From positions 1-59,012 of the forward strand of contig JBDRRP010000054.1 of assembly GCA_043825735.1 (NCBI GenBank): a DNA stretch of 59,012 nt, in the 5' to 3' direction. Numbering within the stretch: the first letter of the stretch is position 1; each line of letters opens with the position of its first letter. Shown piece after piece: positions 141 through 59,012 of this stretch. The notes below the pieces were generated by a model that searched no databases, was not told where the DNA came from, and saw only the letters and a list, made by a program, of their open reading frames with translations. A program made the position numbers and the translations under genes. Source of the stretch: Pseudomonadota bacterium. GTDB taxonomy: Bacteria > Desulfobacterota > Desulfobacteria > Desulfobacterales > JBDRRP01.

Positions 141-1060
141 ATGTTGGTGGCGGCATCGAGGAGCGCATCCGGCGAGGGTTCGCCGGTGCGGCCCAGCAAT
201 CGGTTGACATCCTTGCCGGCGGTTGACGGGACCACCTGCATCAGTCCGAACGCAGGGGCGTGGCTGACGGCATAAGGGTTGAAATTGCTTTCCGTCTGGA
301 TGATGGCGAAAACCAGGTTGCCGCTGATTTTGAACCGCTGGGACTGGCGCTCGACAGAGGGCCGATATTTTCCGGCCCTGACATGCAGGTGGTCCTTTAC
401 CAAAGGAAAACTCACGGCATGGACCGATTTTTCTTTTCCTTGCACGGTTACCGTGCGCTGTGAAAGTCCGGAATGGATGAGATGCTCGGCGTAACGTTCG
501 GCCCGCCATGCCCACCGAATCGGTTTTCCCTCATGGTCGACAACTTCTTCGTATAAAAACGGGGTGTCCCCCAATTTGACCGGGGTGGCGTCATACATGT
601 CCACCGCGCGTGGGTCGTAAGGGGCTAAAAGCGTGGTGGTGATGGCACTCTTGAGGCTATCGGCAGGGTCTTCGGCTGCCACGGTCTCGACGGTGACGAC
701 TCCTTTGTCGAAGTCCACCAGCGCCCGCGACCGATAGTTTTGTGTGTATTTGACGTATTCTTTTTGTGTCGGCTCTCTGGCATCATCGCTGCCCCACTCC
801 CCGGCAACAGCTTTGCGAAACGCTTCGATGAGGCCGCCCAATCGCTTGAGATCGCGCTCCAGCGCCTTGGGGTTGGTGGCATAGCCGACCGCCTTGTCTG
901 CTGCCATTCGCTGGGCCGAGGCGACATCGCCCGTTACGGCGATCCGGCCCACTCGCACCATCTCACCCGGCGTGCAGGCGCCCAGCAGCATCAGCCCAAT
1001 GAGCCCCCAGGTGCGGCGCTTTACGGATTTGCAGCGCGTGCGGCGAAAAAACCGTGTCAT
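141..1060 (-). pseudogene. mltC: MltC-like membrane-bound lytic murein transglycosylase, C-terminally truncated by the IS3 element
   Basis: Lipobox LLGAC; MltC-like N-domain (YVKYT..Y.SR..VDF..G..TVET); SLT motifs IIQTESNFNPYAVS and GLMQVVP. After DAATNI the frame runs into the IS end and stops at 107. Confidence 0.8.
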
Positions 1061-1179
1061 GACGATACCATACGTCAAAATCGGTCGGTTTACAACGGAC
1101 CTTTTCCATCGACATTCCATTCTTGCCGTGATACTCACCCCACCTCTCAGTTTACGATAAACAGTTACAGGGACCGTGC

Positions 1180-2100
1180 ATGAATGCGATTGAAGACAGC
1201 CCCCGCCCGCTGGTATTCATCAAGTTGCTGCTGACCGCCATTTTCTGGGGAGGGACATTTATCGCAGGGCGTTTCGTGGCCGGGCACATGGGGCCGTATT
1301 CGGCGGCATTCTTACGGTTTCTGGTGGCTGGCGTCATTCTCACGGCGCTGGCCTGTCGAAACGGCTCGGGCGGTCTTAGGGTCAGGCGTGCCCAACTGCT
1401 GCCCTTGCTGTCGTTGGGCATGACCGGCGTGTTTGCCTATAATGTTTGCTTTTTTAGTGGACTCAAACTGCTCCATGCGGGTCGCGCGTCACTCATCATC
1501 GCCACCAATCCGGTATTCATTTCGTTGTTGTCTTGCGTGATCTTCAAGGAGTCCCTCTCGCGGCGCGGCATTCTAGGCATTCTGCTTTCCGTGGCCGGTG
1601 CCGTCGTGGTCATTACCCGCGGTGACCTGCCATCCATACTGGCTGGTGGCGTGGGGCGGGGCGAAGCTTATATTTTTGGCTGTGTTTTGAGCTGGGTGGC
1701 ATATTCACTCATCGGAAAGGCCGCCCTGAAAGGACTGACGCCACTTGTGGCAGTGACCTACTCGGCAATATTCGGTGCCGGTTTTCTTCTGGTACCGGCT
1801 CTGGGCGAAGGGCTCCTGGCCGATATGGGGGGATTTGGAACCGGGGACTGGATCGCCATCGGCTATCTCGGTGTCTTCGGCACTGTCCTGGGGTTCGTGT
1901 GGTACTATGAAGGCATCAAGGCCATCGGTCCCAGCCGGGCCAGCCTGTTCATCAATTTTGTCCCGATCAGCGCGGTAATACTGGCGTTCCTCATTCTGAA
2001 CGAGCCCATTACCCTGTCGCTGGTGGTCGGCACGATCATGGTGACATCAGGCGTCACCTTGAACCACCTCGCTGCCGCGCAGCGAAGAGTTGCGTCTTGA
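1180..2100 (+). CDS. DMT/EamA family transporter
   Basis: About 10 hydrophobic helices; FWGGTF start; two EamA-like repeats. Confidence 0.9.
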   Translation: MNAIEDSPRPLVFIKLLLTAIFWGGTFIAGRFVAGHMGPYSAAFLRFLVAGVILTALACRNGSGGLRVRRAQLLPLLSLGMTGVFAYNVCFFSGLKLLHAGRASLIIATNPVFISLLSCVIFKESLSRRGILGILLSVAGAVVVITRGDLPSILAGGVGRGEAYIFGCVLSWVAYSLIGKAALKGLTPLVAVTYSAIFGAGFLLVPALGEGLLADMGGFGTGDWIAIGYLGVFGTVLGFVWYYEGIKAIGPSRASLFINFVPISAVILAFLILNEPITLSLVVGTIMVTSGVTLNHLAAAQRRVAS

Positions 2101-2214
2101 CTAATGCGGGGGGGTGGTTCATTTTGGGGCTACTGTTGAACGGGCGGGCATATTCACGGCCGAATGAGCATGCTATTGCAAAAACACAGCACCCAGCAAC
2201 ATCCGGAGCAGCGC

Positions 2215-3093
2215 ATGAAAGGAAGAGACGGCAAAATCGGCAGAAACGACCCCTGCCCCTGCGGCAGCGGGCAAAAATATAAGAAATGCTGCGAGAAAAA
2301 GGGACTGCCCATAGCCACCCTTCGCGCCCAGTATGAAAAACATTACAAAATCAGGTTCAAGGAACCCAATGACGTCGCGGCCATTCGTGCGGCCGGGCGC
2401 CTGGCACTGGATACTCTGGAGATGGTCGCCGCCGAGTTGCGAGCGGGTATGACGACCGACGAAATCAATACCCTGGTTCACGATTTTACCGTTTCTCACA
2501 ATGCGAGACCGGCACCACTGAATTACCGCGGTTTTCCAAAAAGCGTGTGCGTATCCGTCAACGAGGAAATCTGCCACGGCATCCCCGGACCGCGCGTGCT
2601 TCAGGACGGCGACATTGTCAATGTGGATGTGACCCCCGTGCTCGCCGGCTATTACGCCGACTGCAACCGGACGTTTTTTGTGGGAGACCCCAGCCCGGAC
2701 GCCCGCAAACTCGTTGACATCACCCTGGAGTGCCTGCGCCGTGGCATCGCCATGGTCGCGCCCGGAAACACGCTGGGCGATATCGGCTGGGCCATTCAGG
2801 AGCATGCCGAAAGCCACGGCTGCTCGGTGGTGCGCGAGTTCGTCGGCCACGGCGTTGGCTTCGACTTTCACGAGCCGCCCCAGGTGATGCACTATGGCAG
2901 AAAGGGCAGCGGACTGACCCTGCTGCCCGGCATGGTGTTCACCATAGAGCCTATGATCAACCTCGGAGATCGCCACCTGCACCTTCTGGACAACGAGTGG
3001 ACCGCCATCACCAGCGACGGTTCCCTGAGCGCCCAGTTCGAGCAGACCGTGCTGGTGACGGAGGTGGGCGTGGAAAGCCTCACGCCTTACTGA
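2215..3093 (+). CDS. map: Type I methionine aminopeptidase with N-terminal SEC-C zinc motif
   Basis: GRNDPCPCGSGQKYKKCC (SEC-C) followed by Map motifs SVNEEICHGIP, DVT, GHGVG..FHE, FTIEPMIN and SAQFEQT. ATG at 2215 has GGAG upstream. Confidence 0.92.
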   Translation: MKGRDGKIGRNDPCPCGSGQKYKKCCEKKGLPIATLRAQYEKHYKIRFKEPNDVAAIRAAGRLALDTLEMVAAELRAGMTTDEINTLVHDFTVSHNARPAPLNYRGFPKSVCVSVNEEICHGIPGPRVLQDGDIVNVDVTPVLAGYYADCNRTFFVGDPSPDARKLVDITLECLRRGIAMVAPGNTLGDIGWAIQEHAESHGCSVVREFVGHGVGFDFHEPPQVMHYGRKGSGLTLLPGMVFTIEPMINLGDRHLHLLDNEWTAITSDGSLSAQFEQTVLVTEVGVESLTPY

Positions 3094-3143
3094 TCATTCG
3101 ACTCTGATTTCAGACTGATAGCGGCCTTTACCACAACACCAAT

Positions 3144-3228
3144 GAACCACGAAGACCACGAAGGCCACGAAGGCCACGAAGCAATGATACAAGTGAACTG
3201 ATTTGCCTCTTCGTGAACTTCGTGGTTC
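3144..3228. repeat. Palindromic element, CACGAAG subfamily
   Basis: Left arm has four CACGAAG units at a 9-nt period (3144-3181). Right arm CTTCGTGAACTTCGTGGTTC (3209-3228) is its inverse. Confidence 0.85.
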
Positions 3229-3252
3229 TCTTATTGATGGAACCGGATAACC

Positions 3253-3930
3253 TTGAAAAACTATCTTCAACCCACGGCCATTATCGACAGCGATCACCCT
3301 GACGTCGTCCAGTTTGCGGCGGCCACCACAGCACAGTGCGGCAAAGATCCGCGAAGTGTGGCCGTGGCGCTCTACAACGCCGTGCGCGACACGATCCGCT
3401 ACGATCCATACTCACCTTTCTTTTTGCCGGCGCATTATCGGGCCAGCGAGACACTCAGAAAAAAGGTGGGGTTCTGCATTCCCAAATCGGCACTGCTGTG
3501 TGCGCTGGCGAGGGCGCGCGGCATCCCGGCCCGCATCGGGTTTGCCACGGTACGTAACCACCTGGCCACCCGTCAGCTCATCGCGTTTCTGGGCTCCGAC
3601 CGATTCGTCTATCACGGCTATGCGGAGCTATTGCTCGGCGGGCGATGGGTGAAAACCACACCGGTGTTCAATGCCGACCTGTGCGCGCGGTTTCAGGTGC
3701 CGCCACTGGATTTTGACGGCGAGCACGACGCCGTATTCCAGCCGTTCAATGCCGAAGCGCAGCCCTTCATGGAGTATCTGGCCGATTACGGCACCTTTGC
3801 CGACGTGCCGGTGGACGCCATCGTGGCTGCCTGGACCGAGGCCTACGGCGCGGTCCGGGTGACGGCCTGGATTGACGCCTACAATGCCGGCGGTTCGTGC
3901 AGGGATTTCGCTTCCGAGGATGTTGCCTGA
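3253..3930 (+). CDS. Transglutaminase-like domain protein
   Basis: LYNAVRD.IRYDPY, GFCIPKS (catalytic Cys), GIPARIG and HGYAE motifs. TTG start. Confidence 0.85.
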   Translation: MKNYLQPTAIIDSDHPDVVQFAAATTAQCGKDPRSVAVALYNAVRDTIRYDPYSPFFLPAHYRASETLRKKVGFCIPKSALLCALARARGIPARIGFATVRNHLATRQLIAFLGSDRFVYHGYAELLLGGRWVKTTPVFNADLCARFQVPPLDFDGEHDAVFQPFNAEAQPFMEYLADYGTFADVPVDAIVAAWTEAYGAVRVTAWIDAYNAGGSCRDFASEDVA

Positions 3931-3956
3931 TCGCCTCGAGGCCAAAGAACTTAATC

Positions 3957-4420
3957 CTCACGCAACGGCGCAACGACGCCACGACAGGAAAAAGTGATCC
4001 ATGACAGAGAATGAAATCGCAAAGCAAGTTATGGATGCTGCGTTTCTTATCCACCGGGCTCTTGGGCCGGGTTTGCTGGAGACGGTTTATGAAGTCATTC
4101 TTGCGAAGAAATTGAGCGAAATGGGTGTGTCGGTTGAACGGCAAATTTCAGTCCCGATTCAATTTGAAAACGTCAAATTTGATGAGGGATTTCGAGCTGA
4201 TTTGATTGTGGAGAAAAAGGTCATCGTGGAGTTGAAGTCTGTGGAACGGCTACAACCGGTTCATTCTAAACAACTTTTGACGTATCTTCGTCTAACCGAT
4301 TTGCGTCTGGGGCTTCTGATCAATTTCGGAGAGAACCTTCTCAAGCACGGTTTTAAGCGCGTGGTTAACGGTCTGAAAGAACGATAAATATTCCGTTGCG
4401 TCGTAGCGGCGTTGCGTGAG
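3957..4420. mobile_element. Putative GxxExxY cassette bounded by 27-bp inverted repeats
   Basis: 3957-3983 CTCACGCAACGGCGCAACGACGCCACG and 4394-4420 CGTTGCGTCGTAGCGGCGTTGCGTGAG are 24/27 complementary. They tightly enclose one visibly AT-richer gene. Mobility is inferred; no target duplication seen. Confidence 0.6.
4001..4387 (+). CDS. GxxExxY protein (PD-(D/E)XK nuclease superfamily)
   Basis: LGPGLLETVY signature, RADLIVEKKVIVELK (D..ExK), QLLTYL and GLLINFG motifs. Confidence 0.93.
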   Translation: MTENEIAKQVMDAAFLIHRALGPGLLETVYEVILAKKLSEMGVSVERQISVPIQFENVKFDEGFRADLIVEKKVIVELKSVERLQPVHSKQLLTYLRLTDLRLGLLINFGENLLKHGFKRVVNGLKER

Positions 4421-4462
4421 ACCGTTTTTTACAAGGATGAACAGGAAACAATGGAGGCGACA

Positions 4463-4858
4463 ATGGATCTGAAAAGCTATTTCGAAACAAACCGGGGGAC
4501 CGGTGTGATGGCCACCGCCGATGCCGACGGCAAGGTGGACGCCGCCATCTACTCGCGGCCGCACTTTCTCGATGACGGCACCATCGCCTTTATCATGCGC
4601 GACCGGTTGACGCATCACAACCTCCAAACCAATCCGCATGCCACGTACCTTTTTATCGAAAACCGACCCGGCTACCGGGGCAAGCGCCTTTTTCTCACCA
4701 AAACCCGCGAAGAAAAGGGCGGCGAGACCCTGCGCAGGCTCCACCGCCGCTCGTCCCGGTCAGAGGACAACCAGACCGAGGCGGATATGTTCCTGGTGTA
4801 TTTCAGAATCGACAAGGAATTGCCGTTGATCGGCGCCGGTGGGACAACGATAGACTGA
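4463..4858 (+). CDS. Pyridoxamine 5'-phosphate oxidase family (FMN-binding split barrel) protein
   Basis: GVMATADADGKVDAAIYSRP and THHNLQTNPHA motifs. ATG at 4463 follows GGAGG. Confidence 0.8.
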   Translation: MDLKSYFETNRGTGVMATADADGKVDAAIYSRPHFLDDGTIAFIMRDRLTHHNLQTNPHATYLFIENRPGYRGKRLFLTKTREEKGGETLRRLHRRSSRSEDNQTEADMFLVYFRIDKELPLIGAGGTTID

Positions 4859-4949
4859 TTGCCGCCAGTTTCGTCAAGGCTTCGGGCATGCATGAATCCG
4901 CCCGTGGGCACACCACAATGAAACTATGGGGGATTGTGCGTCACCCGAT

Positions 4950-5423
4950 TTATACGAGAGATTTCTTGAAAATGCGGCAGTAGATATCGGACATGTAAAT
5001 GACGCCGATCGGGCGGTTATTTTCCAATACCGGCAAACGTCGGTACTTATGTTTAATCATGCGATCCAAAATCACCATAATGTGTTCATCACCGGAAGCA
5101 CCGACCACGGTTTTGCTCATGACCTGCTTCACTTTCTTATCGTTCAGGATATCGATGCAGTTTTTGAGCTGGCCGGACCAGGATAATTGGTCTGCGCTAA
5201 TGCCATAATTAAGAAATTCCGGCCGAAGATGGTACAGTATGTCATACATCGTTACCACCCCGGCCAGATGTTTGTATCCGTTCACAACCACAAGGCTGAT
5301 CGACTTGTATCCGGTCTCTCTCACCTTGCCATTTAAAATCAATTGGATCGCTTCTTTAACAGGGGCATTTTCATGAACCTTTTCAAAGGACGCTACCATG
5401 ATGTCTTTTGCATATACTGTCAT
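4950..5423 (-). CDS. CBS domain-containing protein
   Basis: AKDIM...LAGVVT..DI and VKQVMS...RRLPV...IGVI..SDI form a CBS pair. Confidence 0.85.
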   Translation of the reverse strand: MTVYAKDIMVASFEKVHENAPVKEAIQLILNGKVRETGYKSISLVVVNGYKHLAGVVTMYDILYHLRPEFLNYGISADQLSWSGQLKNCIDILNDKKVKQVMSKTVVGASGDEHIMVILDRMIKHKYRRLPVLENNRPIGVIYMSDIYCRIFKKSLV

Positions 5424-5618
5424 GATTTCCTCCCAAAAAACGAGTCGCTCTGCCTCGGACCGAATGAAATGGTACTATTTGCTGAACAACCACTGCCTGT
5501 AGGACTGACCGCCACTGACCTGAACACGAAGGATCATTATAGATTTAAACCGGCATCGTACGCCGTTTTCTTGACCACCTGACAGCCGGAGGAACGGGTT
5601 ATCCCGGTGGCGGTGACA

Positions 5619-5927
5619 CTAATCGTAAGAGTAAACCTTGTACTCCGTGGGCGTGCCGATAACGGCATCAACCTTGCCCTCGAGATTCGCTCTTTTTTCA
5701 TTCTCAAACCACCGTTGCCAGTCTTCAATCGACTTCCAGGTGCTGATCACCAGGTATTCATAGGGGTCTGCCACGTTGCGCATGGTCTCGCCGGAAATAT
5801 ATCCCGGCTGCTGGAAAGCCATGGTTCTTAGCTCGGTTAACATCGGGACCAGTTGGGGCAACAGGTCTGCTTCCATCCCGCCGAAGAGACGAGGCATTTT
5901 TCTGGTCATTAGGACGCGTATCGACAT
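5619..5927 (-). CDS. Antibiotic biosynthesis monooxygenase (ABM) family protein
   Basis: QPGYISGET...YLVISTW.S.EDW..W motif; GGAGG RBS. Confidence 0.85.
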   Translation of the reverse strand: MSIRVLMTRKMPRLFGGMEADLLPQLVPMLTELRTMAFQQPGYISGETMRNVADPYEYLVISTWKSIEDWQRWFENEKRANLEGKVDAVIGTPTEYKVYSYD

Positions 5928-5963
5928 TATCCCTCCAATAAATTTCAGCGGTGCACCCGCCCG

Positions 5964-7259
5964 TCACATTAAAAGGTTTTTCAGTGTCAGCAAAACGCCA
6001 GCGGCCACTGCCGATCCAATTACACCGGCAACGTTGGGTCCCATAGCGAACATCAAGAGCATGTTTTCGGGATCCGCCTCGATTCCCAGTTTTTGACTGA
6101 CCCGAGCAGCCATGGGTACTGCGGATACGCCAGCCGAACCGATGAGCGGATTGATTTTGTTTTCAGATACCAGGTTCAACAGTTTAGCCATCAATATCCC
6201 GGATGCCGTACCGATGCTGAACGCAATCGCCCCAAGAAGTAAAATGCCCAGTGTTTCCAAATTCAGAAAACTTTGGGCGGATAAACGAGAACCGACGCCC
6301 AGCCCAAGAAAGATCGTGACGATGTTGATCAGGGCGGATTGCGTTGTTTTGGATAGACGTTCCACGACACCGCACTCTCGCATGAGGTTGCCGAACATGA
6401 AAAATCCGATGAGCGGCGCTGCCGAAGGCAGCAAAAACATACACAAAGACAGAACCATCAGCGGGAACACGATTTTTTCCACTTTGCCCACATAACGGAG
6501 CTGTTGCATGCGGATTTTCCGCTCCGCGGGGCTGGTCAATGCGCGCATGATCGGCGGCTGGATAATGGGAACCAGGGCCATGTAAGAATATGCCGCCACA
6601 GCGATGGCGCCGAGCAGGTTCGGGGACAGTTGGGATGCCAGAAATATGGCCGTCGGTCCGTCCGCGCCGCCAATAATCCCGATGGAGGCGGCATCGAAAA
6701 TGTCAAAATTAATTCCCGGAACGATATCCGATAGTACCAATGCACCGATGAGGGTGGTGAAGATGCCGAACTGGGCGGCTGCCCCAAGCAGGACCGTCTT
6801 TGGATTGGCGATCATGGGGCCGAAGTCGGTCATCGCGCCAACCCCCATGAAAATGATCAGCGGGAAGACGCCTGTTTTGATGCCGATCTGATAAACATAA
6901 TAGAGAATGCCTCCTGGGTCGTTAATGCCTGCCAGTGGAATATTCGATAAAACACACCCGAAGCCCATGGGCACAAGAAGCAAGGGCTCGAACCCCTTGC
7001 GGATGGCTAAAAACAGCATCAGCAAGCCGACCCCGACCATGAGGAGGCTGCCGATGCCATCCGTCCATCGGCCTGATAAGGGGAAGATATATCCGAAAAT
7101 ACCCGTTGACTTGAGAAACTCGGCAACCATCAGGCCCATGGGCGCCATGGTTTTTGAAGGGGTGCTGTTGGGCGTCATCTGGCCTCCGGCCAAAACGACA
7201 GCGGACACGCAGAGCACCAACATGAGGGTGAAACCGATCCATAGCGACTTTTTTCGCAT
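5964..7259 (-). CDS. oadB: Na+-transporting decarboxylase beta subunit
   Basis: [40 protein letters not shown] and AMGPNVAG motifs. Confidence 0.95.
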
Positions 7260-7274
7260 TTTTGGCGCCTTTGC

Positions 7275-9080
7275 TCAGGAAAGTGTTGCGACCAGTTGTC
7301 GGGGTCTCACGACCTGGTCTTTTTCCACATCAATGCTGAACACTTTGCCGTCACAAGGGGCAACAACAGGTGTTTCCATTTTCATGGCTTCAAGAATCAT
7401 CAATGTTTCGCCTTTTTCTACGCGATCACCGACAGCGATAAAAATTTCGTACACAATGCCCTGCAATTTGGCCTCGACTTCAACCAACTTATTCGGTTTG
7501 GGCGCAACGTCAGCAGCGGCAGCCGGCTTGATTTCGGTCACCTCACCGGAGGCCGCCGCGACCGTAACCTGATACGCTTTGCCTTCAACCGTGATCGTGT
7601 AATCGGTGGGTCCGCTTTGCGGCAGGGGTGCCGGAGATGGCGGCACCGAATTCGGGGTGTCGGCCGCTTTGATTTCGTCGGTCACTTTACGGACATTGAT
7701 GGGCTTTTTTCCATTCAGAAAATCGAGGCCCTTGTTGCCTCCGGGGGTCGCCAGGGCGCCGACGATAAAGATGTTTTCGTCGGTGACCGGCAGATGTTCC
7801 TTTTGGAGGATGGCTTTGGCCTTTGGAATCCCGGGCTCAAGGGTATCGAGCGGATCACCTGTAAACACCGGTTTTCCGAGCTGCTCTTGCGCGATCCGGA
7901 CAATTTCAGGATCCGGCGGCACCGGGGTCCGGCCGAAATAGCCCAGCACCATTTTGCCGTAACCATCGGTTATTTTTTTCCAGGGGCCCTGGGTTACGTT
8001 GGTATAGGCCTGCTGGAAATAAAATTGGGATACCGGAGTTACCGAGGTGCCGAAACCGCCCCTGGCGACACATTCGGACATGGCCGCGATGACCTCTGGA
8101 TAGAGATGAAGCGTACCGGTGTCGCGCATCATCATGGTGTTGGCCGTCAATGCGCCGCCGGGCATGGGCGAGAGGATGACTTCGGATGAAACCTTTTGCG
8201 CTTCCGGAGGGAAAAAATAGTCTTTGAGGCAATCCTGAAGCACCAGATTGGCCTCCATAACTTTAGTGACATCGATATCCAGAAAATAATCGGTGCCTTT
8301 GAGAGCATGCCACAGAGATAGTATGTCCGGTTGGCACGTGCCGCCGGACAAGGGCGAGCGTGCAAGATCGACCCCGTCGCAGCCAGCCTCGATGGCGGCT
8401 TTGTACTGGGTAATTCCCACCCCGGCGGTTTCATGAGAATGAAACCATATCAGCGCTTCGTCGCCCAAAAGCGCGCGCGCGGCCTTGATGGTTTCATAGA
8501 CCTTTCGTGGGTTGCTGGTTCCTGACGCATCTTTGAAGCATACGGAATCATAGGGCAATCCCGAATCGAGGATTTCCTGCAGCGTTTTGATATAAAACGG
8601 TGCATCATGCGCGCCGCTGCAGCCCAGCGGCAGCTCCATCATGGTAACCGATACCTGATGGTGCAGTCCGGCATTCTTTATACACTCACCGGAGTAGATA
8701 AGATTGCGAACATCGTTTAAGGCATCGAAATTTCGGATGTGGGTCATGCCGTGTTTTTTAAACATCTTGGCGTGAAGATCGATCATGTCCCGGGGCTGGG
8801 CAGACAGGGCCACCACGTTGATTCCGCGGGCCAGCGTCTGAAGATTCACGTTCGGACCAGCCGCCGCACGGAAGCGATCCATCATGTCAAAAGCGGATTC
8901 ACCGCAGTACATGAAAAGCGCCTGAAAACGGGCACCGCCGCCGGCTTCCATGAACTCGATGCCGGCATGAACAGCCGCTTCCACTGCAGGAATGAAATCA
9001 TCTGTCAGTGCCCTGGCGCCAAATACGGATTGAAACCCATCGCGCAGCGAGGTATCCATAAATTGAATTTTTTTCTTCAT
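7275..9080 (-). CDS. oadA: Oxaloacetate decarboxylase alpha subunit (carboxyltransferase plus biotinyl domain)
   Basis: DTSLRDGFQS, FKDASG, HSH and MPGG motifs; C-terminal EAMKM biotinylation site. Confidence 0.92.
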   Translation of the reverse strand: MKKKIQFMDTSLRDGFQSVFGARALTDDFIPAVEAAVHAGIEFMEAGGGARFQALFMYCGESAFDMMDRFRAAAGPNVNLQTLARGINVVALSAQPRDMIDLHAKMFKKHGMTHIRNFDALNDVRNLIYSGECIKNAGLHHQVSVTMMELPLGCSGAHDAPFYIKTLQEILDSGLPYDSVCFKDASGTSNPRKVYETIKAARALLGDEALIWFHSHETAGVGITQYKAAIEAGCDGVDLARSPLSGGTCQPDILSLWHALKGTDYFLDIDVTKVMEANLVLQDCLKDYFFPPEAQKVSSEVILSPMPGGALTANTMMMRDTGTLHLYPEVIAAMSECVARGGFGTSVTPVSQFYFQQAYTNVTQGPWKKITDGYGKMVLGYFGRTPVPPDPEIVRIAQEQLGKPVFTGDPLDTLEPGIPKAKAILQKEHLPVTDENIFIVGALATPGGNKGLDFLNGKKPINVRKVTDEIKAADTPNSVPPSPAPLPQSGPTDYTITVEGKAYQVTVAAASGEVTEIKPAAAADVAPKPNKLVEVEAKLQGIVYEIFIAVGDRVEKGETLMILEAMKMETPVVAPCDGKVFSIDVEKDQVVRPRQLVATLS

Positions 9081-9227
9081 GACCGCTCACAATCTCCAAA
9101 TTGGGGTGAATAATTGAAAGGTCCCCCGTAATAAATCGGAAGTTTTTGAACTGCGTAGACAATTATCGCAGTTGCGGGAAATGCCCTATAGGTCCTGTCC
9201 AAATCTGACGCGTTTCTTTCCGGTGCG

Positions 9228-9476
9228 TCATGCCCGAGCACGGTGCGCTGCAATGGCGGCGGAAATAATGGCCACCAGAACGCCCTCTTCTGTTGCCGGT
9301 GCGGGTCTTTTTCGCTGTCGCTGCTGTTGTTCGGTTGCCTCCATTTTGGCAAGCTCCCGCTCGCTCGCTGAAGCCAACAGCTTATAACAAATTTGCATAA
9401 GCAGCATCAGCAGGAGGAGAAAAAGAATTACAACGCCCATCCCCAGAACAGTCAGCTTGAGTCCGGCAATAATCAT
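9228..9476 (-). CDS. oadG: Decarboxylase gamma subunit (OadG family)
   Basis: N-terminal TM helix LGMGVV..FL and C-terminal VAIISAAIAAH; lies upstream of oadA. Confidence 0.88.
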   Translation of the reverse strand: MIIAGLKLTVLGMGVVILFLLLLMLLMQICYKLLASASERELAKMEATEQQQRQRKRPAPATEEGVLVAIISAAIAAHRARA

Positions 9477-9570
9477 CCTTCAGTCCTAAATTTGATCATA
9501 GACATTTCACCGCAACCATAAATCTAATCGGAAAACCCTAAAATGCTATACTCGATTGTACCGGTAAACA

Positions 9571-9590
9571 AAATCAAAAATTTTTGATTT
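9571..9590. promoter_or_regulatory. Perfect 20-bp palindrome, candidate operator
   Basis: AAATCAAAAA-TTTTTGATTT in the divergent intergenic region upstream of oadG. Confidence 0.4.
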
Positions 9591-9755
9591 GCCTTGGCCA
9601 TTGGGTTGTAGGATGGTTACCATACCATTACGGCTTCTTGGCGTGATGCTGGACTGTTCGGTTTGACGACATAACACACCGTTATTTCAGCTATTATCCA
9701 ACAATTAGCCGCCCAGAGCGTTTTTGCCGCCAAGTGCAGAAAGACTGCGGGGACC

Positions 9756-10211
9756 ATGCAACAGATCGAAACCATTCGCCAAAACATCCATGCGCTGCTG
9801 CGGGAACAGCAACTCGGTGTGCTGTCCACCATCGGGGAAAACGCCCCATATGCCAGCCTGGTTGCCACTGCGGTCTCCGATGACGACCGCTACCTGTACT
9901 TTGTCACGCCCCGGGCCACACGGAAGTTTGCCAATCTTTCCGTCAACCCCCAGGTCGCCCTGCTGGTCAATAACAGTATGAACCGCCCGGAGGATTTTCA
10001 CCGGGCCATGGCTGTCACGGCCACGGGAACCGTCGTGTCCACGCCGCCGGCTGACAGGGACAAGATACTCAGCCGCTACGTGGCCAAGCACCCCTATCTG
10101 GAAGACTTTGCCCGCTCCCCAAACTGCGCGCTGGTGGTCGTTCGGGTCGAGCGCTATATCCTGGTGCAGCGATTTCAGAACGTTACCGAATACCGGGTGG
10201 ACCATGACTGA
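9756..10211 (+). CDS. Pyridoxamine 5'-phosphate oxidase family protein
   Basis: LGVLST...PYASLV...F.TPRATRKFANL..NPQVALL motif. Confidence 0.85.
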   Translation: MQQIETIRQNIHALLREQQLGVLSTIGENAPYASLVATAVSDDDRYLYFVTPRATRKFANLSVNPQVALLVNNSMNRPEDFHRAMAVTATGTVVSTPPADRDKILSRYVAKHPYLEDFARSPNCALVVVRVERYILVQRFQNVTEYRVDHD

Positions 10212-17335: not shown

Positions 17336-17420
17336 ACCACGGAGTCACGGAGGACACGGAGATTTTAGTGTCAAACTCAACTGCTTTTGTTTTTCTCCGT
17401 GTTCTCCGTGACTCCGTGGT
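17336..17420. repeat. Palindromic element, CACGGAG subfamily
   Basis: 26-bp arms 17336-17361 and 17395-17420 with one G.T mismatch, around an AT-rich spacer. Confidence 0.9.
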
Positions 17421-28568: not shown

Positions 28569-28921
28569 AACCACGAAGTACACGAAGAAAAGATTAAAAA
28601 ACGAGATTATCTAAAGACGATGAAACCGTAAAAAAGCAATTTTCTCGCATCAGTCTTCGCTCTGCGAGCTACGCCGGACAAGAAGACGCCAAGCACGCAA
28701 AGAAAAATTATTTAATATCAATGTGTTAACGTTGCGATCGTTGCGGCTTTGCGAGAGATTCGGGCTTTTTACGGGACCATCAAAGAATATTTCTCCCGCA
28801 GAGGCGCAGAGACGCAGAGAACTGCGGGAAATTGAATTGCGCGAGTGCGTTTCCCTGCGCCGCTGCGTCTCTGCGCGAGATATGAATTAAAAAATCTCCG
28901 TGCACTCCGTGACGCCGTGGT
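28569..28921. repeat. Nested composite of four palindromic elements
   Basis: Outer arms 28569-28587 and 28896-28921; inner MITE 28618-28783 carrying an insert at 28650-28682; a second inner palindrome at 28792-28880. Confidence 0.85.
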
Positions 28922-35611: not shown

Positions 35612-35637
35612 CTGCCGTTAATAAAGCGCAATCAAGA

Positions 35638-35757
35638 TTGATAGCTCTGTAAAAACTTGAAATTACCACAGAGGACACAGAGAGCGCAGAGATAACTAAT
35701 TAATTTAATATATTCTCGGCGTTCCTCTGCGGTCTCTGTGGTTCAAAATCCATGATT
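35638..35757. repeat. Composite MITE-like element (CACAGAG subfamily) overlapping the ATPase stop codon
   Basis: TTGATAGCTCTGTAAAAA..ACCACAGAGGACACAGAGAGCGCAGAG..CCTCTGCGGTCTCTGTGGTTCAAAATCCATG. Confidence 0.85.
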
Positions 35758-58899: not shown

Positions 58900-59012
58900 C
58901 GATCCCAACGATCCCAACGATCCCAACGATCCCAACGATCCCAACGATCCCAACGATCCCAACGATCCCAACGATCCCAACGATCCCAACGATCCCAACG
59001 ATCCCAACGATC
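58900..59012. repeat. Perfect 9-bp tandem repeat (GATCCCAAC), 12 full copies plus a partial, running off the window
   Basis: Read directly from the sequence. Confidence 0.95.

Follow-up and report, generated by a model that had tools for sequence, protein, structure and literature searches.

A 464-bp cassette at positions 3957–4420 of the DNA analysed here, a 59,012-nt stretch of contig JBDRRP010000054.1 (the window, from what we call the own genome), consists of a gene for a GxxExxY-type nuclease enclosed by inverted arms, each of which is a tandem array of seven-letter words. We confirm that this cassette is a real and widespread element, of the type of the open reading frame (ORF)-bearing intervening sequences (IVS) of rRNA genes, with a nuclease as its cargo and a large progeny of gene-less hairpins. 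The gene-plus-arms unit is general, and the type of word in the arms is inherited with the protein clade and not with the host. A preliminary description of the window, made from the sequence alone, had proposed that the protein recognises or cleaves the hairpins and thereby spreads or maintains them, as is done for repetitive extragenic palindromic (REP) sequences and their doublets (REPINs) by the REP-associated tyrosine transposase, RAYT. That putative mechanism is supported in part by the results below, and we regard it as a fair working hypothesis.

A nuclease gene between periodic inverted arms

The arms of the cassette, 27 nt each, are complementary at 24 of 27 positions (89%) in a repeat search; the left arm ends 17 nt upstream of the ATG and the right arm begins 6 nt past the stop codon (Table 1). 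The whole lies between a transglutaminase-like gene (3253–3930, PF01841) and a PNPOx-like gene (4463–4858, PF01243). The preliminary description had given the size of the gene, the match between the arms and both gaps, and every checkable detail of it was correct; the CGCAACG-type units at an 8-nt period can be read directly in the left arm. The gene is also richer in AT than its surroundings, as had been reported, with a GC fraction of 0.447 against 0.614 in the left neighbour, 0.583 in the right neighbour and 0.589 in the window, which places it 14 GC points under its neighbours. The flanks of the gene scored 19.5 as an ungapped inverted repeat, where the 99th percentile of the controls was 11.5 and one of 424 controls reached 14. 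Read from outside to inside, the layout of tCTCA, three words and an A-rich segment is common to 35 arm pairs of related cassettes.

Table 1. Coordinates of the cassette, of gene-less hairpins in the window and of PF05635 genes elsewhere in the own genome.
Feature	Position	Strand	Description
Left arm	3957–3983	+	CTCA, then three tandem words CGCAACG-G-CGCAACG-A-CGCCACG, 8-nt period
Leader	3984–4000	+	17 nt; Shine–Dalgarno-like AGGAAAAAG at 3986–3994
GxxExxY/PDDEXK_3 nuclease gene	4001–4387	+	128 aa, 44.7% GC
Right arm	4394–4420	+	CGTTGCG-T-CGTAGCG-G-CGTTGCG-TGAG, imperfect reverse complement of the left arm
Gene-less CACGAAG hairpin	3148–3224		Four forward units, loop, two inverted units; between methionine aminopeptidase and transglutaminase-like genes
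Gene-less CACGGAG hairpin	17338–17418		3+3 units, 33-nt loop
Gene-less hairpin with the cassette's own word type	28687–28753		CGCCAAG, CGCAAAG / CGTTGCG twice, CTTTGCG
Gene-less CGCAGAG hairpin	28797–28875		Left arm 28797–28819; right arm CCCTGCG-C-CGCTGCG-T-CTCTGCG, 28853–28875
PF05635 gene, four-helix bundle	C15:27890–28204		
PF05635 gene, four-helix bundle	C151:12274–12588		
PF05635 gene, four-helix bundle	C152:24563–24880		

The own genome (6.80 Mb in 160 contigs, 57.5% GC) contains seven genes of the PF13366 family to which the window gene belongs. They have 42–46% GC, and the other copies are 30–43% identical to the window copy. Periodic arrays with an 8–9-nt period lie beside all seven, five of which score at least 12 as flanking inverted repeats, and the words differ among the copies: CGCAACG, CACGGAG, CACAGAG, CGCAGAT/CACGGAT and CACAGAT. 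At the copy C27:16721 the hairpin is present on the downstream side only. A variant layout, in which the gene stands between two complete hairpins, occurs at the own copy C25:84828 (C25:84599–85622) and at locus L161 (G300:C54:31448–32495), where each hairpin also has a GC-rich inner stem.

The same arrangement was sought around 115 usable PF13366 genes, of which seven are the own copies, 29 come from elsewhere in the phylum and 79 encode close relatives of the window protein. Each gene was scored by the strongest ungapped inverted repeat that its 130-nt flanks form with each other, and the controls were window pairs shifted by 800–1100 bp at the same loci. A score of at least 12 was reached by 85 of the 115 genes and by 4 of 424 control windows; in 61/115 genes, compared with 2/212 controls, each flank contained two or more copies of a shared exact 6-mer. 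The preliminary description had named a general lack of arms around GxxExxY genes as one of three outcomes that would speak against it. Most of these genes have them, and the unit of gene plus arms is general.

The encoded protein matches PF13366 (PDDEXK_3) with E = 8e-41 (139.5 bits, cut-off 22) over positions 2–117 of the 117-position profile, and TIGR04256 (GxxExxY) with E = 4.8e-42 (143 bits, cut-off 35) over the full profile. The PDDEXK_3 family has been described as being of unknown function and as having undergone multiple transfers (PMC3424549). Among 77 aligned sequences G22, G24, E27, Y30, D67, E77, K79, Q91, L105, N108 and F109 are invariant, which bears out the earlier statement that the D..ExK residues (D67, E77 and K79) are intact. 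The AlphaFold2 model of the window protein (pLDDT 95, pTM 0.88) has its best Foldseek matches in Cas4 SSO0001 (E 2.7e-3, TMq 0.55) and archaeal Hjc, and a wide structural search returned 3ijm (Z 8.3), BpuSI (3s1s, 7.7), Cas4 (4ic1, 7.4) and CinB (7.3), all of them PD-(D/E)XK proteins. The modelled protein thus has the features of this superfamily, namely the catalytic D...ExK, the glutamate of the upstream helix and a restriction endonuclease-like fold, and its predicted nuclease core is intact and confidently folded. With only moderate Z values and no subfamily ahead of the rest, the protein is not assignable to any one PD-(D/E)XK subfamily. Cas4/RecB-like nucleases have a QxxxY motif after the ExK strand, and Cas4 a four-cysteine iron–sulphur cluster. 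Q91 is invariant and Y95 is kept in at least 90% of the 77 sequences; the window protein has no cysteine at all and so lacks the iron–sulphur feature of Cas4. A sequence search of the PDB with the window protein gave no match up to E = 1, and a homodimer prediction scored 0.00, which is neutral as to binding.

Gene-less hairpins and the words of the arms

The architecture recurs throughout the own genome without a gene, as the preliminary description had noticed within the window. We searched for at least three self-similar units of CRCNNMN type at 8–10-nt spacing, with the reversed, uncomplemented genome as control, and found 844 arms, mostly in gene-less hairpins, against 14 in the control; 18 of the arms are inside the window. 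The largest families are CACGAAG (187 arms), CGCAGAG (158), CACGGAG (112), CGCAAAG (82) and CACAGAG (73), the remainder having other words. A word-free finder, which accepts any 6-mer present three times at 7–11-nt spacing, returned 707 arrays compared with 29 after local triplet shuffling. A chance origin of the arms is ruled out by these 29 shuffled arrays, by the 14 arms of the reversed control and by the 4/424 shifted windows. Adjacent arms are strongly polar, with 139 of 251 forward–reverse neighbours lying 20–40 nt apart as against 2 of 229 reverse–forward neighbours, so that a typical element consists of three words, a ∼30-nt loop and three inverted words. The example given earlier at 28797, CGCAGAG-G-CGCAGAG-A-CGCAGAG, is real and forms the left arm of one such hairpin. 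In the same part of the window (28687–28919) a CGCNAAG/CGCAACG hairpin, a CGCAGAG hairpin and a lone CACGGAG reverse arm adjoin within 240 bp. Head-to-tail arrays of a 9-nt unit, CGATCCCAA / GGATCGTTK, with up to ∼20 copies, are present at 58900–59006 and at many places in C25, C27, C36 and C39; they constitute a repeat class distinct from the three-unit arms.

When 117 proteins of the family were compared with the own genome by tblastn, the seven genes and one remnant were recovered. The remnant (C88:27752–28003) joins the first 25 residues in frame to the last 24 (49 aa) between intact CGCAGAG arms, and this internally deleted gene represents an intermediate stage between units with and without the gene. 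The loops of gene-less CACGGAG hairpins agree with the inner flank of the CACGGAG cassette at 9.2 of 14 positions, compared with 7.7–8.7 for other families, a difference too weak to be used. The gene-less CRCAGAG family is composite: in 44 oriented copies ∼35 nt are conserved outside each arm, giving an element of ∼150 bp, and this outer sequence forms inverted ends (GAYAAACYCGTAAAAAGT) that are absent from cassettes of the window clade. A partial copy of the CRCAGAG element lies at window positions 35637–35750.

We then compared gene and arms across 401 genomes sampled evenly from the phylum. PF13366 was present in 142 of them, triplets of CRCRRAK in 202 and PF05635, the family of the IVS protein considered below, in 218; the own genome has the most CRCRRAK triplets of all, 783 (33 in controls). 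PF13366 was found in 83 of the 100 genomes with at least 10 arms and in 59 of the 301 with fewer than 10, a comparison weakened by the non-independence of related genomes and by the up to two arms that each gene itself adds to the count. The odds ratio between arms and PF13366 was 20, that between arms and PF05635 was 5.5, and arm count correlated with the number of PF13366 copies with a Spearman coefficient of 0.67 over the 401 genomes. Presence of the gene tracks the abundance of arms, and the elements are not equally abundant without it; their equal abundance had been a second adverse outcome, and none of the three listed in the preliminary description was encountered. In three genomes with a single gene, whose arms are of the CRCRGAG class, that class made up 307 of 337 arms (G290), 28 of 68 arms (G178), or 123 arms beside 77 of the CGCNAAG class (G300). 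The gene's own class was the commonest of the four classes counted in G290 and G178, and was also the largest in G300.

The arm words were set against the protein phylogeny, as had been suggested. A scan with the window protein yielded 381 relatives, of which the best 80, 61–94% identical, come from at least 10 phyla, Thermodesulfobacteriota, Acidobacteriota, Verrucomicrobiota, Planctomycetota, Cyanobacteriota, Bacteroidota, Ignavibacteriota, Myxococcota, Lentisphaerota and Kiritimatiellota. The sequence of the arms is (t)CTCA-CGCAACG/CGCGACG in the subclade of the window and (t)CTCA-CGCNAAG in its larger sister clade. On a quick IQ-TREE phylogeny of 117 proteins, in which many forks are unresolved, the word labels of the 56 cassettes that could be labelled automatically (61 rows were left unlabelled by the strict caller) changed nine times, whereas shuffled labels changed 24.8 times on average and at least 21 times; none of 500 shuffles was as low. 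The word follows the protein clade and is inherited with it, not with the host.

The letters of the arms were examined in 26 cassettes in which both arms have the 23-nt form. Word position 6 is identical between the arms in 78/78 unit pairs. Position 4 and the two spacers agree in 73 of 130 comparisons, against 56.0 when permuted (sd 4.7; 0/2000 as high), which leaves 44% of these free positions unpaired within a cassette. Six of the eight positions per period keep their letters across phyla, from Cyanobacteriota to Thermodesulfobacteriota; the search pattern fixed word positions 1–3, 5 and 7, and the invariance is thus partly by construction, although unforced listings show the same letters. 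Letters are fixed where a structure selected only as a stem would drift, and are unpaired where a stem needs pairing, which argues for a sequence-specific recognition site of the form CGC-n-AAG-n. It looks, from this pattern of letters, as if a protein reads the arm words, and we consider this to be our best evidence for a putative recognition site. We infer that the putative reader is most likely the encoded nuclease.

Movement, insertion site and RNA

None of the loci of the best 80 relatives shares any of the four neighbours of the window gene, and this includes L077, which is 94% identical. The gene of this closest relative (L077:3001–3385), from another deltaproteobacterial metagenome-assembled genome, has a stop after codon 114 and stands in an unrelated context. 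In a genome of the same genus (G401), sequence aligns to window positions 141–3086 and 4446–4839 with 132 bp between the blocks, and hairpin, transglutaminase-like gene and cassette are all missing from the interval between its aminopeptidase and PNPOx genes; its contig G401:C34 thus lacks window positions 3087–4445. It also lacks window positions 4840–9794, a region with a CBS-domain gene and with carboxylase/decarboxylase-type genes at 5964–9080. The cassette is a discrete, horizontally moving unit that is not shared at this site between congeners.

Two genomes of the same order keep the aminopeptidase–transglutaminase pair, so that the difference from G401 may have either polarity. The transglutaminase-like gene adjoins PNPOx in none of 19 same-order loci, and the exact empty site between the two genes that the preliminary description had suggested looking for was found neither in G401 nor in those 19 loci. 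The hairpin at 17338–17418 likewise has no counterpart in G401, where, at 74–80% nucleotide identity, the borders are blurred and no junction is readable. At locus L132 (G417:C17) the spacer between the aminopeptidase and transglutaminase genes, the position of the CACGAAG hairpin in the window, holds a periodic inverted repeat with words of the TTAAGTGT/TTAAGTTT type.

At the RNA level, the minimum-energy fold pairs the left arm with the right arm. A scan of 3100–4600 showed no sigma-70-like promoter and two terminator-like sites, both downstream in the PNPOx gene and none within the cassette. Crude ORF calls gave 89 loci with neighbours on both sides, at 55 of which the gene is co-oriented with both neighbours and at 7 opposed to both, so that it points the neighbours' way in 55 of 62 co-directional contexts. 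This differs from what is expected for random insertion of a symmetric hairpin. Neighbouring bacterial genes are usually co-oriented in ∼70–75% of cases, and 55 versus 7 is near that level. No RNA run was listed as containing the stretch, and each of two metatranscriptome runs gave a single short contig that fitted in part and was confined to the PNPOx gene. A contig of run X3 that joins 3984 to 4394 through 13 other letters was considered as a trace of excision and rejected as such for this locus; it is a gene-less CGCAACG hairpin from another place or organism (28-nt side).

Competing explanations and known systems

The explanation that we favour, with somewhat less than even confidence, is a moving nuclease cassette whose words are putative recognition sites, which is copied in a homing-like manner and whose arms form an RNA stem cut by RNase III. 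The arm words would be recognised by a sequence-specific protein, most likely the encoded nuclease, which would cut DNA at or near its cognate arms or gene-less hairpins. Cutting would then lead to repair-mediated, homing-like copying and to the persistence of the cassette and its hairpin relatives, and the cassette would be the functional counterpart of RAYT/REPIN, built on another enzyme. When transcription reads through the cassette, its arms may form a stem open to cleavage by RNase III, like that of ORF-bearing IVS, and such a stem would allow the cassette to sit between the genes of an operon at little cost.

Several observations weigh against this account. PD-(D/E)XK enzymes hydrolyse DNA and do not join it, and spread to new sites would therefore need host repair. 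The co-inheritance of word and protein is also expected if gene and arms merely travel together. No target duplication was detected at the cassette ends: none of 29 window-clade cassettes scored at least 7, and the mean was 4.34 against 4.41 for permuted ends. The commonest hairpin family of the own genome, CACGAAG, has no gene with CACGAAG arms there; only L005 belongs to the CACGAAG protein clade, and it is without flanking inverted arms. Among the 100 arm-rich genomes 17 are without any match to PF13366, including G037 (135 arms; 99% complete), G023 (59 arms) and G109 (49 arms), while 13 genomes have a strong PF13366 match and no CRCRRAK arm. The 77 CGCNAAG arms of G300 are without a cognate gene, its only gene being CRCRGAG-type. 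In the CRCAGAG family, direct repeats (CAAnnnTT, 6–10 nt) at a fixed distance score at least 7 in 12/29 two-anchor copies compared with 35/552 permuted pairs; they resemble a target-site duplication and hint at a separate insertion mechanism for that family. Finally, all three strong PF05635 (23S_rRNA_IVP) genes of the own genome, which lie outside rRNA and encode four-helix bundles and not nucleases, have periodic inverted arms around them whose words differ from CRCRRAK (AGGATTC/AAGGGTTC, GGGATTCAGGAATT and GGAGATAG). Most of 12 PF05635 loci from other genomes (L038–L049), judged by eye, show such arms as well, and 2 of the 12 use words of CACAAAG/CACAGAG type. Since PF05635 genes occupy the same architecture, the case for arms peculiar to the nuclease is weakened.

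This parallel supports a pure IVS-type element, in which the sole part of the arms is to form, in RNA, a stem whose cleavage by RNase III releases the cassette from the host transcript, the role of the nuclease, whether defence, addiction or none at all, is unrelated to them, and the covariation of word and clade reflects common descent. Such an element has a counterpart in the 23S rRNA IVS of Coxiella burnetii, which according to the available part of its description has a 28-bp terminal stem, cut by RNase III in vitro, with three tandem GACAGAT heptamers before the S23p ORF (PMC4990558). The pairing of the arms in the RNA fold, the lack of a promoter-like site in the cassette, the bias of orientation with the neighbours and the above-permuted agreement of the variable arm positions all fit it. 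A stem alone, however, should undergo compensatory drift, yet six of eight positions keep their letters across phyla and 44% of the free positions are unpaired; the co-orientation is near the usual bacterial level, and the hundreds of gene-less hairpins, with their correlation with the gene, are left unexplained. We regard this explanation as rather unlikely. That another enzyme, such as an insertion sequence or miniature inverted-repeat transposable element (MITE) transposase, a Y1 transposase or a host function, moves hairpins and cassettes with GxxExxY as mere cargo seems to us less likely again. It would account for the outer ends and the direct repeats of the CRCAGAG family and for the 17 arm-rich genomes without PF13366, and the own genome does have eight Y1_Tnp (PF01797) matches. 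Only one of these eight has a CRCRRAK arm within 1 kb, on which ground we reject RAYT as the driver of these hairpins; moreover, no candidate transposase was identified, window-clade cassettes have neither target duplications nor the CRCAGAG outer ends, and the arms track PF13366 more strongly than PF05635.

A further reading takes the arrays to be sites of a host global regulator of the IHF/HU kind, with the gene merely caught between two of them. It derives from Geobacter metallireducens, for which the available part of Aklujkar et al. (2009; PMC2700814) describes 47 sequences in which a TCTCCGTS[Y] repeat occurs three times in tandem and which form pairs on opposite strands, the distance within a pair being variable, and a class 1 of four tandem octanucleotides, likewise paired, and interprets them as global-regulator (IHF/HU) sites. 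In that part of the paper these sites are predicted and no binding data are given. Here several word types coexist in one genome, and across phyla the word goes with the clade of the gene that the arms enclose. PF13366 genes have arms at their flanks far more often than expected by chance, and the arrays come and go between congeners; we consider the regulator reading very improbable.

Returning to the nuclease cassette, we believe that the likeness to RAYT proposed in the preliminary description holds in some respects and fails in others. In its favour are the co-occurrence of gene and arms, the clade-specific words, the pattern expected of recognition sites and a gene flanked by a repeat that is present genome-wide without it. 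Against it are the parallel with PF05635, the arm-rich genomes that lack the gene, the composite CRCAGAG family, and a gene that is not of Y1 type, is multi-copy and moves across phyla. A bolder generalisation, which we think possible although rather doubtful, is that GxxExxY proteins are a large natural family of small sequence-specific nucleases, each with its 7-nt recognition word in triplicate to either side of its own gene. Together with the gene-less hairpins they would be a REPIN-like replicator system, the second in bacteria, whose enzyme is a hydrolytic PD-(D/E)XK nuclease and not an HUH transposase, with PF05635 as a parallel word-binding cargo.

The cassette would give GxxExxY/PF13366, a common family for which no function is listed (PMC3424549), a testable job. 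As a candidate target adjoins each gene, the sequence itself suffices to plan assays of binding and cleavage. If the nuclease does drive the hairpins, this would be a novel means by which short repeats persist in bacteria, and the cassettes would amount to a natural catalogue of paired nucleases and targets. Our literature searches on GxxExxY/PDDEXK_3 and on the arm-word strings returned no description of the cassette beyond the gene-less copies treated as regulator sites in the part of PMC2700814 cited above. Class 2 of that study, TCTCCGTS[Y], is the reverse complement of CACGGAGA and corresponds to our gene-less CACGGAG hairpin family; no link to GxxExxY or PF05635 genes is drawn in the same part of it.

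MITEs resemble the cassette in that gene-less copies share the ends of a gene-bearing unit, with one internally deleted intermediate here (C88). They differ from it in that the cassette has no target duplication at its ends and no DDE transposase, and the sole gene-less family with duplication-like repeats, CRCAGAG, has extra outer ends that are not found in cassettes. The comparison with REPIN/RAYT is closer. There too, as described in the accessible portions of PMC3116915, PMC3337134 and bioRxiv 10.1101/2022.05.22.493013, a gene is flanked by repeats that populate the genome as gene-less inverted doublets, and gene and repeats co-occur across genomes. RAYT, however, is a Y1 (HUH) transposase, PF01797, whereas the cassette enzyme is a PD-(D/E)XK protein, PF13366. 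In those same portions REP arms are single palindromes and RAYT is single-copy and vertically inherited; the cassette arms are tandem arrays of words, and the gene has up to 7–11 copies per genome and crosses phyla.

Together with REPIN/RAYT, the 23S rRNA IVS of Coxiella burnetii, Leptospira and others are the closest known systems, and the cassette is of a type common to the classical ORF-bearing IVS. In the available part of PMC4990558 these are regarded as selfish; a long inverted repeat at their ends encloses a loop that contains a small ORF (∼125 aa), and the arm adjoining this ORF is made up of tandem heptamers. The cassette likewise has a small ORF between 27-nt arms that match at 24/27 positions and contain three tandem words. 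Unlike the IVS, it lies between protein genes and not in a 23S rRNA helix, its ORF encodes a PD-(D/E)XK nuclease and not a four-helix bundle, and it has hundreds of gene-less relatives; processing by RNase III, a feature of IVS, is for the cassette a proposal by analogy. One class of element ties together the ORF-bearing IVS of rRNA, long without an explanation, the 'regulator sites' of Geobacter and the hairpin repeats that number in the hundreds per genome.

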